This document shows positions 22,150 through 62,925 of a DNA stretch of 64,000 nt, one piece after another. Position numbers and translations under genes: made by a program. The DNA is from Bdellovibrionota bacterium. Its GTDB lineage: Bacteria; Bdellovibrionota_C; UBA2361; CALJRW01. The stretch is from the NCBI GenBank assembly GCA_041740355.1, contig JBGSMD010000002.1:1-64000 (forward strand), written 5' to 3'. Below the pieces are notes generated by a model. It had not been told where the DNA came from and ran no database searches. It saw only the letters and a program-made list of their open reading frames with translations. Numbering within the stretch: the stretch's first letter is position 1; each line of letters starts with the position of its first letter.

Positions 22150-23199
22150 CTACTTACTTCTTAAAAGGATAAATTGAAGTAGTGATTCCAAGATCATTTT
22201 TGATTCTACACAATGCTTAGGGATGGAACTTGAGCATTCATTAAGCAAAGACTGAGCTTCTGTAATAAAACTTTCAGCTAAATGCTGGCTAGCTGCTAAA
22301 ATACCCTCTGATTTAATAGCAGCCAAATGCAATTCAATATCAATTTGTTTAACATCTGGTTTAGTTTTTAAGTCTTCCGCTAATGGATTTCCAGAATTTA
22401 ACCAAAGGACATTTACTACCGAAGGCTTACGTTCCTTTAGATCTGTCCCTAGATTTTTGCCGAATTTGGCAACATTTGCAGAGACATCAAGAATATCATC
22501 AAGAATCTGAAATGAGATTCCTAACTTTTCACCAAATTGGGCAAATTTATCACAGATTTCGGGTGAGCAACCAGCAATTTTGGAAGCGCTAAAACAGGCT
22601 AATCGAAACAGTGCGGCAGTTTTCTTTTTAGCAATTAATAAGCTTGATTCAATTGTATGAGAATCTTGATGAAGTGCAGTTTCTAAGATTTCTCCTTCAG
22701 TTAAATCGGCACAAGCCAATTCTGTAGCTTTTACGATTGATGGATCGAGTAAACCACAAAGACCAAAAGCTTTGACAAGTAAAAAATCACCCGTAATAAT
22801 TGTGTCATTAATGCCAAATTTTCGACAAGCCGTTAGTTGATTTCTTCGTAGTTCTGATTGATCAATAATATCGTCGTGAAGAATCGTAGCCAGGTGAATC
22901 ATTTCAATACCAGCAGCAACATTAACTAGTTCAGGTTTTAGTTCGTTTAAGCCACAAAATTTAGCGACTAATAGTGTTAGTATCGGCCTAATTTGTTTTC
23001 CTTTTTGAGCAAATGAATAACTGGCGATCTCCGAAATTCTCGGAGCTTCAGATTCAATTGATTTTTCAATCATTTGATTTACAGCTATGAGGCTAGGAAG
23101 TTCTTGAAGATATTTAAAATCAAAATTAGTCATATTAGTATGAGTTTTAAACCCACGGTTATTCATTTTTTTCAAAAATGAATAACCGTGGGTCAGCAA
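22150..23199 (-). CDS. Polyprenyl diphosphate synthase (IspB/HepT family)
   Basis: GKQIRP, HDDIIDQSELRR, KKTA.LF, FQILDDILD; true start probably the ATG at 23133. Confidence 0.9.
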   Translation of the reverse strand: MLTHGYSFLKKMNNRGFKTHTNMTNFDFKYLQELPSLIAVNQMIEKSIESEAPRISEIASYSFAQKGKQIRPILTLLVAKFCGLNELKPELVNVAAGIEMIHLATILHDDIIDQSELRRNQLTACRKFGINDTIITGDFLLVKAFGLCGLLDPSIVKATELACADLTEGEILETALHQDSHTIESSLLIAKKKTAALFRLACFSASKIAGCSPEICDKFAQFGEKLGISFQILDDILDVSANVAKFGKNLGTDLKERKPSVVNVLWLNSGNPLAEDLKTKPDVKQIDIELHLAAIKSEGILAASQHLAESFITEAQSLLNECSSSIPKHCVESKMILESLLQFILLRSK

Positions 23200-23289
23200 A
23201 ATAATGGCCTAGCTATTTTTTACCGTAGAAAATAACACCAAACCCTCCTTTCTTATATTTGGTATTTTCAAACAATATAAGCGGAGTGT

Positions 23290-24822
23290 TTATTCCCAAC
23301 CTAAACCTTCAGAGACCCAAGAGATGGCTGATAGATATTTACTTTCAGTCGGAAAAATTTTGCAGAAACTATTGGTTTTCGCAAGTGATGCATCTGTTAG
23401 ACGTTTAGAATCCCCAACGGTCACTACTTTTGCTTCAGGATAAATAGAAAGAATTTCTTGTAAGTCTTGTAAACAGTTTTCGATCTTCTCATCGGCTAAC
23501 ATAATCAAATCTACTCGTTTAAAGTTAATCTGATACCAAGAAAGTGCCTCTGTTGAATCCATAAAAACTCTAGAGTCCATTGCTGCTGCAGAAAAATAAA
23601 GCTTGCAAACCTCAATTTGCGATAAGTCTGGTTCAATCACCATGACTAAACCCTTACAGTCAGATTTACGATTATGTTTAAGACTTTCCTTAGAAAGCGG
23701 TAGAAAGATTTTAAAGCAAGTGCCTTTGCCAAGCTTAGATTCCACAGTAATCGATCCTTGGTGAGCTTTAATAATGGAAAAAACAATACTTAAACCAAGG
23801 CCCAATTTGTTGGCTCTTTTCTTAGTAGTAAAAGTTGGATCAAATAAGGAGTTTAAATGCTCTGGCGCAATTCCTAAGCCTTGATCAGTAATCGTAATGC
23901 AGGCAAAGCGGGAATCGTTGTTTTGAAGTATAGGTGGTAAGTCCCAACTGTTTGGAATTGATAAGGCTAGTTTAATTTTACCACCATTAGGCTGTGCTTC
24001 CGTAGCATTAATAACTAAATTAGCCAATGCTTGACGGATCTCAGAAGGGTTTAAATCAACATAAATGGGCTCACTGGAATCAACCATGGAAACTACACGA
24101 CTCTTGGAGTCACTTGCTTGGTTCAGGAAATTAGTAGAATCAATAATTAAATCTACTAGATTACACTGGGGAATAATTTTTATTTCGGCAGGAGAAAAGG
24201 CTAGCAAGTTATTGATAAACTGTTGAGATTTCGTGAGGAGCGATTGGCACTTATTAATTTTCTTACAACATTTTTCTTCTTTTAAATCTTTTTCCATCTG
24301 GTTTAATAGATCGGAAATCTTTTCCAGATTTGTCCCTAAACCATGAGCAACATTTGCGGCGAGTGCTCCCAGAGATAACAACTTTTGATCACGGAGGTGA
24401 TCTTTCTCAATGCTCTGCAAGCTTTTTTCAGATTTCCGTCTTTCACAAGCGTAATAAATAGATCGGTATAGGAAATCTGGCATGATCTTTCCCAGGATCA
24501 AATAATCGGCAGCTCCGGCACGCAGCAATCTTAAATCACGATCTTTTGATTTTCCGTCAGAAAGAATAACGACTGGAAGGAGAAGCGATTCGTCATTGAT
24601 TAATTCCAAAATGGCGAAAGTGTACTTACCTAGACTTTGATCGTCAAAAAGACAAACATCATAATTATTATCAAGTTGCTCTAAACCAGCTTGATAATTA
24701 CGAGCCCAGAAAATTTCAGATTTGAAACCTTGAACCCGTTGCAAAAGGACTGTGATTTGAAAATAAATTTCTTCCGATTCTGAAACAAAAAGGATCTTTC
24801 TGGGCTTAAAGTTTTGAATCAC
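23290..24822 (-). CDS. Hybrid histidine kinase REC-HisKA-HATPase-pseudoREC
   Basis: N-terminal receiver (CLFD, GAADYL), atypical H-box NVAHGLGT, NLVINATEA, DQGLGI, GLGLS; degenerate C-terminal receiver. Confidence 0.82.
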   Translation of the reverse strand: MIQNFKPRKILFVSESEEIYFQITVLLQRVQGFKSEIFWARNYQAGLEQLDNNYDVCLFDDQSLGKYTFAILELINDESLLLPVVILSDGKSKDRDLRLLRAGAADYLILGKIMPDFLYRSIYYACERRKSEKSLQSIEKDHLRDQKLLSLGALAANVAHGLGTNLEKISDLLNQMEKDLKEEKCCKKINKCQSLLTKSQQFINNLLAFSPAEIKIIPQCNLVDLIIDSTNFLNQASDSKSRVVSMVDSSEPIYVDLNPSEIRQALANLVINATEAQPNGGKIKLALSIPNSWDLPPILQNNDSRFACITITDQGLGIAPEHLNSLFDPTFTTKKRANKLGLGLSIVFSIIKAHQGSITVESKLGKGTCFKIFLPLSKESLKHNRKSDCKGLVMVIEPDLSQIEVCKLYFSAAAMDSRVFMDSTEALSWYQINFKRVDLIMLADEKIENCLQDLQEILSIYPEAKVVTVGDSKRLTDASLAKTNSFCKIFPTESKYLSAISWVSEGLGWE

Positions 24823-40214: not shown

Positions 40215-40703
40215 TTGAGTAATCGACAAAAGAAAAGAGTTAATCAAAGACAAATCATATTTTTAATTGCCTTTATTGGCTTATTAATTGCTGGTACTTA
40301 TTTCTATCTAGATTACAAACGCACTTCACATTTAAAACTTGCAAATTTAGTAAATCAAGATGGTAAAAATTATGGCCAGATTTACTTGGAAATTGCTGAT
40401 ACTCCTGAAAAGAGAGCGAAAGGATTAATGTATCGTCAGAAACTTTCCTTAGATCAAGGAATGCTCTTTAAGTTTGATGAAACAAAAATCCAATCGATCT
40501 GGATGAAAAATACATACCTAAGCTTAGATTTATTTTTCCTTAGTCCCAATTATCAGATTGTTGGTATTATTCCTAAAGTTCCAATCTTAAATGAGATATC
40601 CAGAAAAGTTGAAGTTCCATCTCGTTATGTAGTCGAACTTAATGCTGGTTCAGTTGAAAGACTTGGGATTAAGCTTGGGGATACTTTTAAGTTAGATTCA
40701 TAA
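40215..40703 (+). CDS. DUF192 domain protein
   Basis: EIADTPEKRAKGLMYR, GMLF, WMKNTYLSLD, VVELNAG. Confidence 0.9.
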   Translation: MSNRQKKRVNQRQIIFLIAFIGLLIAGTYFYLDYKRTSHLKLANLVNQDGKNYGQIYLEIADTPEKRAKGLMYRQKLSLDQGMLFKFDETKIQSIWMKNTYLSLDLFFLSPNYQIVGIIPKVPILNEISRKVEVPSRYVVELNAGSVERLGIKLGDTFKLDS

Positions 40704-40939
40704 TTAATAATTCTACTTTTGCAGCACAATTTTACCAATGTAACACTAAGAGTTTTTACAGAATCAAATCTAGTTTTTTAAAAATGTCTGGTTCTGATCT
40801 TAAGTGCGATTTGTTTACTCCATTACCTCCATTTAGTTATCATCATAAATCTGTAACTGCCTGTAATCTCCTTGAAAATTAGAGACTAGCTCTTTACATA
40901 AATTTCTAATCGTGTAAATTATTGTCCAACTTCAAGTGC

Positions 40940-41143
40940 GATAAACCCTCGGCATATCAAATTGCGGAGGGCGAGAGTAATCTTGGCTTTAGCCATGTTA
41001 CGCCGTAGAAGAAAAACCAATACTCACCATTAATTTGCGTAGGGTTTGTAGTATTTTTTACGGCAAAACCTGTCTTTGACAGGATTTTGCTCGCTCACCT
41101 TATTCTATTCATTTTTTATCAAAAATGAAAAACGGTGAGTATA
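40940..41143 (+). ncRNA. Structured repeat family B, copy 1 (longer copy; candidate ncRNA or non-autonomous mobile element)
   Basis: Homologous to 61832-62006; 5' hairpin, multibranch core closed by GCGAG/CTCGC, 3' hairpin; G-U pairs favour the + strand. Confidence 0.65.
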
Positions 41144-41165
41144 TTTGCCCTTAAAGTTAACTTGC

Positions 41166-41240
41166 TGGCCTGTCGCCAAGTGGTAAGGCAACTGGTTTTG
41201 GTCCAGTCATCCGGGGGTTCGAATCCTCCCAGGCCAGCCA
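41166..41240 (+). tRNA. tRNA-Gln (TTG)
   Basis: Acceptor stem (T)GGCCTG/CAGGCC(A), D-arm GCCAAGTGGTAAGGC, anticodon arm ACTGG-TTTTGGT-CCAGT, GGTTCGAATCC, encoded CCA; canonical position upstream of prs. Confidence 0.96.
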
Positions 41241-41307
41241 ATAAGTGTATTTAAATATCATCGCCGTTATTTCGCATTATTGTGATAGCGGTACAAAACT
41301 GGAAAAC

Positions 41308-41336
41308 CCTCCGTCGCATAAGCTTTGGAGTACAAG
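41308..41336 (+). repeat. REP-like palindrome (family C)
   Basis: CCTCCGTCGCATAAGCTTTGGAGTACAAG aligns with CCTCCTTCGCTAAAGCTTCGGATGACAAG at 38388-38416. Confidence 0.55.
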
Positions 41337-41439
41337 TTCAGTATTTGTGCTAGGCGTAAATTCAGTATTATTTGGTAAATACTTTTGGAATTTACTTTAT
41401 TTAGCTGAGGTGCAAAACTTCTCAGCAAAAGTTGATTTT

Positions 41440-42384
41440 ATGAATCGTAACCTCCTAGTTTTCTCTGGACGCTCTTCTCAGTCCTTCACTTCTAAAATTA
41501 CAAAAATATTAAATGTTGAGCTTGGTAAGTTAGAGGTAACTCGCTTCAGTGATGGGGAATTATCCGTCGATATTGGAGACAATGTTCGGGGACGTGATGT
41601 CTTCATAGTTCAAAGTACCTGCAATCCAGTAAATGACAATTTAATGGAATTGCTTATTGTTATGGACGCCTTAAAACGAGCATCCGCAGGCAGAATTACT
41701 GCAGTCATTCCTTACTTTGGTTATGCTCGTCAGGATCGCAAACTTAAACCTCGAGTTCCAATCACTGCTAAGTTAGTAGCCGATATTCTTACTACTGCCG
41801 GAGCTCATCGGATGCTGACAATTGACCTACACTCTGGTCAGATTATGGGATTCTTTAACTCTCCGGTTGATAACTTAAATGCTCTTCCCGTTATTCTTCC
41901 TTATGTTAAAAATAAATATAAGAATGAGAATATCGCGATTGTCTCACCTGATGCTGGTGGAGTTGAGCGTGCTCGTGAGTTTTCTAAAAGATGGCCGGAA
42001 TCAAGCTTAGCAATTATTGATAAAAGACGGCCTGAACCAGGCAAAATTGCTGAAATGAGAGTAGTAGGTGATGTAAAAGATCGCTGCTGTATTATTGTCG
42101 ATGATATGATTGATACAGCTGGAACTCTCGTCAAAGCTTCCGAAGTACTAAAAAAAGCTGGTGCTTCAAAGGTGATTGCTTGTTGCACTCACGCGGTACT
42201 TTCAGGGAGTGCTATGGAAAGAATTAACGAAGCTGATTTTGAGGAAGTGATCATTACAGATACAATCCCGCTTAAGCATGCAGAAATTAGCCCAAAGATT
42301 ACAGTGCTTTCTGTTAGTTCGTTATTTGCTGAAGCAATACGTAGAATTCACAAAGAAGATTCGATTAGTAGCTTATTTAGCTAA
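41440..42384 (+). CDS. prs: Ribose-phosphate pyrophosphokinase
   Basis: FSDGE, PYFGYARQDR, DLHSGQI, VSPDAGG, VDDMIDTAGT; start moved to ATG 41440 (MNRNLLVFSG). Confidence 0.96.
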   Translation: MNRNLLVFSGRSSQSFTSKITKILNVELGKLEVTRFSDGELSVDIGDNVRGRDVFIVQSTCNPVNDNLMELLIVMDALKRASAGRITAVIPYFGYARQDRKLKPRVPITAKLVADILTTAGAHRMLTIDLHSGQIMGFFNSPVDNLNALPVILPYVKNKYKNENIAIVSPDAGGVERAREFSKRWPESSLAIIDKRRPEPGKIAEMRVVGDVKDRCCIIVDDMIDTAGTLVKASEVLKKAGASKVIACCTHAVLSGSAMERINEADFEEVIITDTIPLKHAEISPKITVLSVSSLFAEAIRRIHKEDSISSLFS

Positions 42385-61067: not shown

Positions 61068-61901
61068 ATGGCTATAAAAAGAGAACGTTCCAATTACCTA
61101 ATTCAGTCTGTTAAGCATGCAACAGAAGTACTTGAAGCCTTAGCAAATGCCAAAGATGAAGTTGGTATTACATCACTCTCTAAGCAACTAGGACTTCATA
61201 AAAATAATGTTTTTAGACTACTAGCAACTCTTAGCTTGCAAGGTTTAGTTCAACAAAATCCAAAATCAGAAGATTATTCGCTGGGACCTGCTTGCTTAAA
61301 GCTAGGCCAATCTTATCTTTTAAATAGTGATTTAATTTCTCGAATCAGACCATATATCCAAGAGTTAAATGAAAATATTGATGAAACAGTTAGCTTTGCT
61401 AGATTAATCAATAATTTGGTTCATTTTCCAATTTCTATTTCATCTAAGTCGGCCGTTGCTGTTTCCCCTCGTGTTGCAAAATCACTAAAAGCAGAGAATT
61501 GTGCTGTTGGCCGTTTATTAATGTCCAAAGAATCTGATCTTAGTAACCAACGAGATAATAAGATTTTAAATTTAAAAGATATCGAGCACTGCTCTGACTC
61601 AGGTCAACTTGATAAGGATGTCTTTACTGTTTGCATGATTGTTCGAGGTATTGCCAATGCCCCAATCGGCGCAATTGAGATTCAAGCACCAATGTATCGT
61701 GCAAGTCACGACTCAATTATGAAGCAATTAGATAAAACCGTTAAGGCGATTAACAATTGTTTTTCTGTGGATAATGTTGCTTCCAACTTAAAACTTAGCC
61801 AGCAAATCCAGACTGAGGTTCTTAAAAATCAGATAAACCCTCCGCAAATTTCCTCTGCGGAGGGCGAGCGTAATCTTGGCGTTAGACAAGTTACGCCGTA
61901 G
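61068..61901 (+). CDS. IclR-family transcriptional regulator
   Basis: IQSV.HA..VLE, LSKQLGLHKNNVFRLLATL HTH; last ~22 codons come from repeat family B. Confidence 0.87.
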   Translation: MAIKRERSNYLIQSVKHATEVLEALANAKDEVGITSLSKQLGLHKNNVFRLLATLSLQGLVQQNPKSEDYSLGPACLKLGQSYLLNSDLISRIRPYIQELNENIDETVSFARLINNLVHFPISISSKSAVAVSPRVAKSLKAENCAVGRLLMSKESDLSNQRDNKILNLKDIEHCSDSGQLDKDVFTVCMIVRGIANAPIGAIEIQAPMYRASHDSIMKQLDKTVKAINNCFSVDNVASNLKLSQQIQTEVLKNQINPPQISSAEGERNLGVRQVTP

Positions 61902-62006
61902 AAGAATAACCAATGCTCACCGCGGATTTGCCTCGGGTTTAGTATTATTTTCTACGGCAAAACCTGTTTTTTCATTTTTTATCAAAAAGAATAGGCGGTG
62001 AGTATA
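61832..62006 (+). ncRNA. Structured repeat family B, copy 2 (lacks an internal ~30 nt)
   Basis: GATAAACCCTCCGCA...TGCGGAGGGCGAGCGTAATCTTGGC...GTTACGCCGTAGAAGA...CTACGGCAAAACCTGT...CGGTGAGTATA; homologous to 40940-41143. Confidence 0.65.
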
Positions 62007-62925
62007 AATTCAGAGCAATCTGTAAACCTTTAGGTTCTTCTGGTAATCGATCTTTCAATACTAATTCGATGATCTGCTTACCCAAGATCCTTTGATCGAT
62101 TCCAATTACTTTCCAAAATCTATGATTAGTTAATTTGCGTTTATTCCGTAAGAAACGATTAATTTGACTTTGGTAACCAGAATTAATTAAAAAGTCTACT
62201 GTGATTAATGACTGGGCATAGGCTACTGGTATTATACTACTTGGAAGTCTTGTAAACCCTGACTGAAGTTTGTTAAAATCAATTAATTGCTTATCAGATA
62301 ACCATTCAGTAAGAACAGATTTAAGTAAATGATGTTCCTGCTCTTCAATTAATTGAGCAATACCTTCATCTAACCAACCAGGACAATTATTATTACTTAA
62401 ACTTGCTGTCAGAGCATGAGCAAATTCATGGTTTAAAATCTTAAGTAAGTTAAACGGTGATTGCATCTCTTTAACTGGTATTAAAATTTGATTCTTGTAG
62501 TATAAAGCATTGGTCCACTGGGGAGCTCTAGTTATTTGATAAAATGTCTCAGGAGTAAGAAGTTTGATTTTGAGCTTGAATAACGGAACATCCCCAAATT
62601 GTGACTGATAACTAATTAACTGCTTTTCTAAATGTATCGGTAACAAGCTAGCCAAATTTTCGAAACTTGATTGATAGCTAAGGCTGATTCTTGCTTGATT
62701 ACTAAGCAAGAAGCTTTTTTTAAGTATCTTTAATTTTAATGGCCTAGTCGTATGATGTGATAAGTTAACAGATCTTCCAATTGGAACTTCAGCTGTAACT
62801 ATTAAATTAAAGGCAAAAAAGACCCCAAAAAAGAAAAGATAAAATGTGCTGTGCCTACAAAAGTGCGTTTGAACCATGAACAGATTTCGACAATTTGAAC
62901 CAATTTCTTGAGCACTTATTGCCAA
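61972..62925 (-). CDS. Peptidase MA-family zinc metalloprotease-like protein
   Basis: HEFAH plus PGWLDEGIAQ gluzincin motif, AYAQS; start uncertain. Confidence 0.75.
   Translation of the reverse strand: MAISAQEIGSNCRNLFMVQTHFCRHSTFYLFFFGVFFAFNLIVTAEVPIGRSVNLSHHTTRPLKLKILKKSFLLSNQARISLSYQSSFENLASLLPIHLEKQLISYQSQFGDVPLFKLKIKLLTPETFYQITRAPQWTNALYYKNQILIPVKEMQSPFNLLKILNHEFAHALTASLSNNNCPGWLDEGIAQLIEEQEHHLLKSVLTEWLSDKQLIDFNKLQSGFTRLPSSIIPVAYAQSLITVDFLINSGYQSQINRFLRNKRKLTNHRFWKVIGIDQRILGKQIIELVLKDRLPEEPKGLQIALNLYSPPILFDKK

Follow-up and report, generated by a model that had tools for sequence, protein, structure and literature searches.

A repeat family in a Bdellovibrionota genome, probably a MITE composed of the two hairpin-rich ends of an IS630-family IS

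A repeat that we call family B occurs twice in the window, a 64,000-nt stretch of DNA from a Bdellovibrionota bacterium (assembly GCA_041740355.1, contig JBGSMD010000002.1, positions 1-64,000). Family B is very probably a MITE made of two ~100-nt, hairpin-rich ends of an IS of the IS630/Tc1-mariner family, which were joined after the transposase gene was lost. It shows presence/absence variation at TA sites, both of its halves are homologous to IS ends, and the transposase of the parent belongs to the IS630 family. Together with a sister family, S, family B constitutes an uncatalogued MITE family that exists in one-core and two-core forms. Below, G000 denotes the window's own 3.27-Mb assembly and G001 a congeneric genome. 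R1 is a covariance model built from a cross-lineage alignment, A1, that covers the inner segment, the conserved core and the 3' terminal hairpin; a second alignment, A4, compares the left half of family B with IS left ends. The features in the window, with the evidence for each, are:

40942-40943, no strand: TA abutting the 5' end of copy 1 (the target TA or its duplicate); the orthologous G001 site is uninterrupted, with TA at the junction.
40944-41141, plus strand: family B copy 1, whole body, 198 nt (sequence, fold, R1 matches, left-end alignment).
40944-40971, plus strand: 5' terminal hairpin of copy 1, formed by the outer left motif Lo (AACCCTCGGCA) and its local partner (TGCGGAGGG) (fold; helix 93% paired in 16 copies).
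40972-41012, minus strand: left conserved core of copy 1, inverted, with CGAG, the arm-1 hairpin and GCCGTAGAAGA (R1 minus-strand match; alignment A4 with IS left ends).
41020-41031, plus strand: inner left motif Li of copy 1, ATACTCACCATT, the "segment 1" of an earlier note on this DNA (complementary to the 3' terminus; helix 92% paired).
41036-41048, plus strand: inner right motif Ri of copy 1, TGCGTAGGGTTTG, "segment 2" of the same note (complementary to the 5' terminus; helix 84% paired).
41054-41094, plus strand: right conserved core of copy 1, with TTTTTTACGGC, the arm-3 hairpin and CTCGC (CGGCAAA and GCTCGC invariant in alignment A1; the arm covaries).
41095-41141, plus strand: 3' terminal hairpin of copy 1 with the outer right motif Ro (CGGTGAGTA) (fold, helix pairing, covariation).
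41142-41143, no strand: TA abutting the 3' end of copy 1 (sequence, empty-site comparison).
61836-62004, plus strand: family B copy 2, 169 nt, internally deleted and TA-flanked (sequence, R1 matches, G001 site empty).
23148-23292, minus strand: family S copy with a single core, consisting of 5' terminal motif, loop, Ri, core and 3' hairpin (R1 match at 23150-23251, minus strand, 92 bits).

The two copies of family B that the earlier note had picked out are thus confirmed at 40944-41141 and 61836-62004. R1 matches each of them twice, in opposite orientations: copy 1 at 40944-41031 on the minus strand (35 bits) and 41036-41141 on the plus strand (96.6 bits), and copy 2 at 61836-61924 (minus) and 61929-62004 (plus). 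Because element positions 37-173 match their own reverse complement in an nhmmer search, family B is an imperfect dyad. Its terminal inverted repeats, AACCCTCCGC and the reverse complement TACTCACCGC, agree at 7/10 positions. Similarity among copies ends at TA|AACCC on the 5' side and GAGTA|TA on the 3' side. The element is short (198 nt), multicopy and gene-less, with no room for a transposase gene. Copy 2 is flanked by TA at 61834-35 and 62005-06, and its internal deletion has removed arm 3 and part of the 3' hairpin. A tRNA gene (41166-41237, 59.5 bits) begins 24 nt downstream of copy 1. It is the sole sequence that passed a search of Rfam 15 at gathering thresholds and at E <= 10, the next best match scoring 17.6 bits against a threshold of 81.3, which agrees with the earlier note's failure to recognise a known Rfam family. 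Two convergent genes, an IclR-like regulator gene and a 317-codon ORF (61068-61901, plus strand, and 61972-62925, minus strand), meet at copy 2, which lies in their overlap. The last 22 and ~11 codons of these ORFs, and both stop codons, come from the element; their G001 orthologues end in different tails, SLNSEQSVTL* and LRIDS*.

Family B is one of the two repeat families related by this module in G000. A BLAST search with the element gave 62 matches in the assembly and nhmmer gave 51, of which 28 are near full-length copies of family B. Partial matches led to family S, which is ~145 nt long and has 20 full copies in G000. From the 5' TA onwards, S has the terminal motif, then a loop of ~35 nt and the motif's complement, followed by the conserved core, the 3' hairpin and a second TA. 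Segment 2 of family B corresponds to the 3' arm of the first hairpin of family S (hairpin 1); Ri is homologous to this arm, and also to the part of a full-length IS where the transposase gene has its stop codon. By crude ORF calls, 10/28 copies of B and 8/20 copies of S lie in divergent spacers, compared with 413/1747 spacers overall. In tandem gene contexts, by the same crude calls, 10 copies of B have the orientation of the genes and 4 the opposite one, and the corresponding numbers for S are 2 and 7. A scan of G000 with terminal and core motifs detected no long copy that carries an ORF, only decayed or mini copies.

Several variants accompany the basic forms. Some copies of B, including L014-L016 and L019-L024 (for example C42:15823-16056, C63:27166-27434 and C30:105093-105389), contain extra, GC-richer hairpin modules of ~31-34 nt. 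These are of three kinds, are found within arm 1, within the loop of arm 3 or ahead of the 3' hairpin, are sometimes nested, and look like a separate tiny mobile hairpin. TA-bounded mini-elements of ~35-45 nt (G000 C32:15681-15715, C39:47137-47180 and C63:80048-80085) consist of the 5' terminal hairpin alone, or of this hairpin immediately followed by the final bases of the 3' terminus. In the S copies of G000 (L109-L128), a stem segment of 5-7 bp in the 3' hairpin is nearly private to each copy yet self-complementary, while the adjoining stem is conserved. We considered the private segment as a copy or guide of flanking DNA and rejected the idea, as there was no excess of matches (3.1 vs 2.70 +/- 0.54, p ~0.27, with 10/20 copies parsed).

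Comparisons with related DNA that lacks the element indicate where it was inserted. The earlier note had proposed looking for empty orthologous sites, and all four of those examined have TA at the junction: the sites of copy 1 (G001:C6:82376|82377) and copy 2 in G001, and the sites of the S copies of loci L047 and L049, which are empty at G000 C56:3227 and C39:100593. The corresponding filled sites have TA on both sides. Because flank identity is only 77-92%, duplication of TA and insertion beside a TA are not separable from the sequences, and for copy 1 the duplication model needs a 1-nt indel. Among the B-type and IS elements examined, TA is found at 10/11 left ends and 9/11 right ends, and abutting copies have one TA in common. 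One copy of B, on contig C12, occupies the same location in both congeners. At a tRNA-adjacent site (C38:103533-103793), G000 has a B-like copy and locus L054 an S copy. Contigs from four DNA sequencing runs over 40600-41500 included the filled site and other copies of the element; none joins across the element.

The distribution of the module across genomes is patchy. An exact pattern of the core found 32 stretches in a species-level genome collection, 25 of which have, by reading, the layout hairpin-core-hairpin; the other 7 are chance matches in the coding sequence of other phyla. In alignment A1, which has 25 sequences, CGGCAAA and GCTCGC are invariant, and 16/31 predicted pairs of the core arm and the 3' hairpin show compensatory changes. 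No part of the element is better conserved than this core. R1 matches occur in 24/91 genomes of the order, 9/39 genera and 18/55 high-quality genomes, with 47, 64 and 101 matches in three genomes that belong to one genus. This patchy, bursty distribution is the pattern of a mobile element. No description of the family was found in the literature searched.

The high-copy genus supplied the link to a transposase. Many of its R1 matches are paired, a minus-strand match followed by a plus-strand match ~0.35-0.75 kb away, end to end, which is the layout of family B with a longer centre. Ten such elements with inverted cores (L159-L168, roughly 0.6-0.75 kb) have centres with broken reading frames and remnants of a transposase. 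When five fragments were compared with Pfam, DDE_3 was above the cut-off in 3/5, HTH_23/HTH_29 was found in 1/5 and nothing in 1/5; matches to transposase remnants were seen in L160, L166, L168 and L163. Two further elements of this genus, L134 and L142, have a different repeat of ~190 nt inserted in the transposase-remnant part. When the 91 genomes of the order were searched for a complete parent, only fragments turned up, at 16 places in 4 genomes, with a longest open frame of 132 codons; several of these places adjoin contig ends.

Full-length relatives were found in metagenome contigs, so that the long copies enclosing an IS630 ORF for which the earlier note had recommended a search do exist. 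A metagenome scan with a 100-residue fragment gave 183 relatives, of which 80 were kept; 42 of the 80 were scanned with R1, and 8/42 loci had matches. In five loci (L189, L190, L194, L195 and L196), inverted R1 matches lie 1260-1357 nt apart around a transposase gene. L189, L190, L194 and L196 have an intact right-terminal hairpin and TA on both flanks, and L195 is without a normal right terminus. L189 has an open frame of 335 codons, with a possible frameshift near its 5' end relative to L194; the product matches DDE_3 (103.3 bits), HTH_33 (49.5) and HTH_23 (27.5). The genes of L195 and L196 have one in-frame stop each, and those of L190 and L194 are split into shorter ORFs. The stop codon of the transposase falls inside the right inner segment of the full-length IS. 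In alignment A4, the left half of family B and the IS left ends have 36 invariant columns and a mean identity of 69%. Since the left half aligns with IS left ends and R1 matches both halves in inverted orientation, family B is an IS630-family IS reduced to its left and right ends.

Other transposases in these genomes were considered as the parent and set aside. A search of G000, G001 and G006 with the L189 protein found no cognate transposase, the sole match in G000 being a 28%-identical IS630 at a contig end. G014 retains a 34-residue remnant inside its B-type copy. The resident IS630 of G000 is split over two contig ends (C8:19300-20267 and C10:42491-42629) and has TA-flanked inverted repeats of 26-28 bp. 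It was rejected as the parent, its inverted repeats being unrelated to the ends of B and S and its protein 27-28% identical to the L189 type; locus L086 contains a full copy, 70% identical to this resident element, with perfect 27-bp repeats. An IS630 in G002 was also rejected, as its repeat fits the ends of the G002 elements at merely 10-13/25 positions by reading. The first residues of the 25 largest multi-copy protein clusters of G000 were read, and no further transposase was seen among them.

The feature that had drawn attention to family B was its structure. The by-eye fold of the earlier note, a 5' hairpin, a multibranch core closed by GCGAG/CTCGC with three arms, and a 3' hairpin, is reproduced by the minimum-free-energy RNA fold of copy 1. 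At -66.3 kcal/mol this fold is much more stable than 200 shuffled sequences (-40.6 +/- 3.5; z -7.3, 0 shuffles as good). The minus strand folds strongly too (z -5.2). Pairing was tested in 16 basic copies, 12 from G000 and 4 from G001, with copies that contain insert modules excluded. In this set 91.6% of the cells of the local fold are paired, compared with 41-47% when the partner is slid. For the two long-range helices between centre and termini the value is 88.0% of 367 cells, compared with 34-43% when the partner is slid by 1-3 columns, and the complementarity of the centre to both termini thus holds family-wide, as had been proposed from the two copies in the window.

The same 16 copies gave no indication that pairing is maintained by selection within the family. 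Covariation was not above the level of shuffles (66 and 82 of 500 shuffles attain the observed score), and most changes break pairs. Behind the earlier statement that loop and terminus change together there is a single compensated pair of copy 1 (pair 97-200 of alignment A3). Across the family, double changes in the long-range helices were found in 2 pairs, against 0.9 expected, a count that 100/500 shuffles attain. The suggestion that G.U pairs favour the plus strand was likewise not supported: the numbers of G.U and A.C cells are 39 and 38 in the local fold and 6 and 7 in the long-range helices, which shows no preference for either strand. As pairs are lost without compensation beyond the shuffle level, single copies decay like neutral DNA.

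The match between the centre and the tips can be explained by the layout of the parent. On the top strand Lo and Li have the same orientation at the left end, and Ri and Ro, at the right end, have the opposite one. With the ends inverted, and with the inner motif of an end repeating its outer motif in the same orientation, the centre is complementary to both tips. Loss of the intervening transposase gene made Li and Ri neighbours in the centre, and the central loop corresponds to the junction of this deletion. To compare motifs, we scored Lo with Ri and Ro with Li (cross) against Lo with Li and Ro with Ri (parallel). The cross and parallel scores for Lo and Ro, respectively, were 7 v 4 and 9 v 4 in copy 1, 5 v 4 and 8 v 4 in copy 2, 11 v 8 and 11 v 8 in G006, 7 v 5 and 7 v 5 in G014, and 6 v 5 and 8 v 5 in L196. 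In G000, G006, G014 and L196, all of which have inner repeats of the terminal motif, the inner motif thus fits the opposite terminus better than its own, while the motif sequences differ between lineages. The cross-match is absent in G071 and mixed in G079. The L189-type ISs (L189, L190 and L194), among them the sole IS with an open frame, lack both recognisable inner repeats and complementarity between centre and terminus (scores 3-4), which implies that such pairing is no requirement of this type of IS. Hairpin 1 of S-type elements has seven different yet complementary sequences across genomes. A longest-helix matrix of pairing across lineages was too noisy in this AT-rich DNA.

We propose the following history for the element. 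Each end of the parent would comprise, from the outside in, the target TA; a terminal motif of 10-12 nt that forms the terminal hairpin with a nearby partner; the conserved core, with GCTCGC, a covarying arm hairpin and GCCGTAGAAGAC; and an inner copy of the terminal-type motif. Loss of the transposase gene would have joined the two ends, giving family B, and family S would be a further derivative that retains the whole right end and, of the left end, the terminal motif alone. Both would move, or would have moved, by cut-and-paste into TA with duplication of the TA, mobilised in trans by a cognate DDE transposase. The terminal and inner motifs are putative binding sites of this enzyme. The hairpins may have been selected in the active parent, for instance as insulating terminators or as regulators of transposase expression.

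Plain cut-and-paste of double-stranded DNA does not account for three observations: the covariation of stems at the level of lineages (16/31 pairs), the private stem segment of family S, and the match of inner motifs to the opposite terminus. Because stems are compensated between lineages and inner motifs match the outer motif of the opposite end, a small chance remains that the folded single strand matters. We regard it as unlikely that this IS630 subgroup uses folded single-stranded nucleic acid, with the core and the two helices between termini and inner motifs as the functional unit; such a unit could be an end transcript that controls the transposase, or a structure that brings the ends together. 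If true, this would explain the lineage-level stem covariation, inner motifs that track the opposite terminus, and the spread of S elements with a rebuilt hairpin, and B-type elements would present the folded unit on both strands. Stated as a rival to the MITE explanation, the element would be IS630-derived, the folding of its single strand (DNA or transcript) would matter, the termini would pair with the inner motifs beside the core, and either both ends would be presented together or an end transcript would regulate transposition. We consider this version decidedly unlikely. It draws on the better fit of the inner motif to the opposite terminus in four lineages (G000, G006, G014 and L196) despite their differing motif sequences, on the seven complementary versions of hairpin 1, and on the compensated pairs of the core arm and 3' hairpin in an element whose core is its most conserved part. 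It is opposed by the low scores of the L189-type ISs, by the absent and mixed matches of G071 and G079, and by the absence of both within-family compensation and G.U strand bias in the copies compared. Inverted repeats can, moreover, stay matched through mutational processes without selection. A related transposon, ISY100, is described as requiring solely its 24-bp inverted repeats on double-stranded DNA (PMC2170065).

Two explanations outside the IS630 family were also weighed. The earlier note had left a choice between a non-autonomous mobile element, which is the reading that stands, and a pseudoknotted or bistable ncRNA, which does not. A family of structured ncRNA genes acting as RNA would be compatible with the strong fold (z -7.3), with a conserved core whose arms covary across lineages, and with the occurrence of MITE-derived small RNAs in Coxiella (PMC5896051). 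We nonetheless judge it very improbable: TA sites that are filled in one genome can be empty in a related one, copies overlap gene ends and lie in both orientations relative to genes, both strands fold without a strand-specific G.U signal, copies decay without compensation, there is no Rfam match, and remnants of a transposase lie within the same frame of ends. The most improbable of the explanations is a single-strand-DNA element of an HUH/Y1 enzyme (IS200/IS605- or REP/RAYT-like), or an IS110-type element with a bridge-like RNA. The terminal hairpins with compensatory variation and the GTAG in the core would suit it, and candidate enzymes exist in G000: five Y1_Tnp-like (HUH) genes of ~325-341 codons, with a weak match to the family and HIH and Y..NPV motifs (C16:249390-250415, C51:14138-15163, C51:22114-23139, C26:27160-28155 and C63:205624-206598), and one IS110-family gene (PF01548, DEDD_Tnp_IS110; C24:312-731, a 335-codon frame). 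The Y1 genes were rejected as partners, however, as they have conserved flanks of their own without similarity to B or S, and they occur in 38/41 related genomes as against 24/91 for the element. Contig C24, which carries the IS110 gene, is without B or S matches. The full-length relatives encode DDE_3, and the ends of the element are inverted repeats with TA on both sides. Together with the L189-type ISs, which are without a centre-terminus match, these facts also speak against the mechanism envisaged in the earlier note, in which the ends would be juxtaposed by base pairing as with IS200/IS605 guides or IS110 bridge RNAs.

Under the MITE explanation, what had been a candidate for a new structured RNA or self-pairing mobile element becomes fairly ordinary selfish DNA. 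About 50 loci in G000, and hundreds in related Bdellovibrionota-like genomes, can be annotated as IS630-derived MITEs, and the covariance model and the parent IS can be used for masking these repeats. The element also accounts for altered gene tails, such as those of the two convergent genes at copy 2.

Close analogues are MITEs derived from IS630-family ISs, such as RUP of Streptococcus pneumoniae, which is mobilised by IS630-Spn1. Like RUP, family B is short, gene-less and multicopy, has inverted ends homologous to those of an IS630-family IS, is flanked by TA, and lies between genes or clips gene ends. Unlike RUP, it has ends of ~100 nt with a terminal hairpin, a hairpin-bearing core and, further in, the terminal motif once more; the one-core S and two-core B forms coexist, and no cognate IS is assembled in G000.

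The small repeats Correia/NEMIS of Neisseria and ERIC/IRU of enterobacteria fold into long hairpins. We know of no parent IS for either group. The QMITE1/2 elements of Coxiella are described with direct repeats of 2-3 or 7-11 nt (PMC5896051). All of these are small repeats that resemble families B and S in folding into long hairpins and in lying between genes or overlapping gene ends, where they can supply gene tails or small RNAs. They differ in that the parent family, IS630, is identified here, and there is no sequence relation.

In the IR/DR-type Tc1/mariner transposon Sleeping Beauty it is the like pairs, outer with outer and inner with inner, that resemble each other. Its outer repeats are 14 bp and its inner repeats 12 bp, according to the account in PMC5224488. 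In the elements described here, as in Sleeping Beauty, each of the long inverted repeats has an outer motif and an inner one that point the same way (PMC5224488), and this IR/DR-type layout alone makes the inner motifs complementary, on one strand, to the terminus of the other end. They differ in that the inner motif fits the opposite outer motif in several lineages, each terminus has a local hairpin partner, the L189-type IS is without recognisable inner repeats, and the motifs are here only putative transposase sites.

As described in PMC2170065, IS630-family elements insert into TA and duplicate it. ISY100 (ISTcSa) of Synechocystis, a member of the IS630/Tc1-mariner group, has 24-bp inverted repeats, and 30 bp per end are enough for its transposition (PMC2170065). 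The full-length parents share with ISY100 a single gene, whose transposase product has HTH motifs at the N-terminus besides the DDE domain, a length of ~1-1.3 kb and, probably, insertion into TA with duplication of the TA (PMC2170065). In contrast to the simple 24-bp repeats reported there for ISY100 (PMC2170065), the ends of the L189 and L196 types are ~100-130 nt long, with hairpins and a conserved core. Beside elements of the ISY100 type, a bacterial IS630 subgroup whose ends are ~100 nt long, rich in hairpins and furnished with an inner repeat is unusual.
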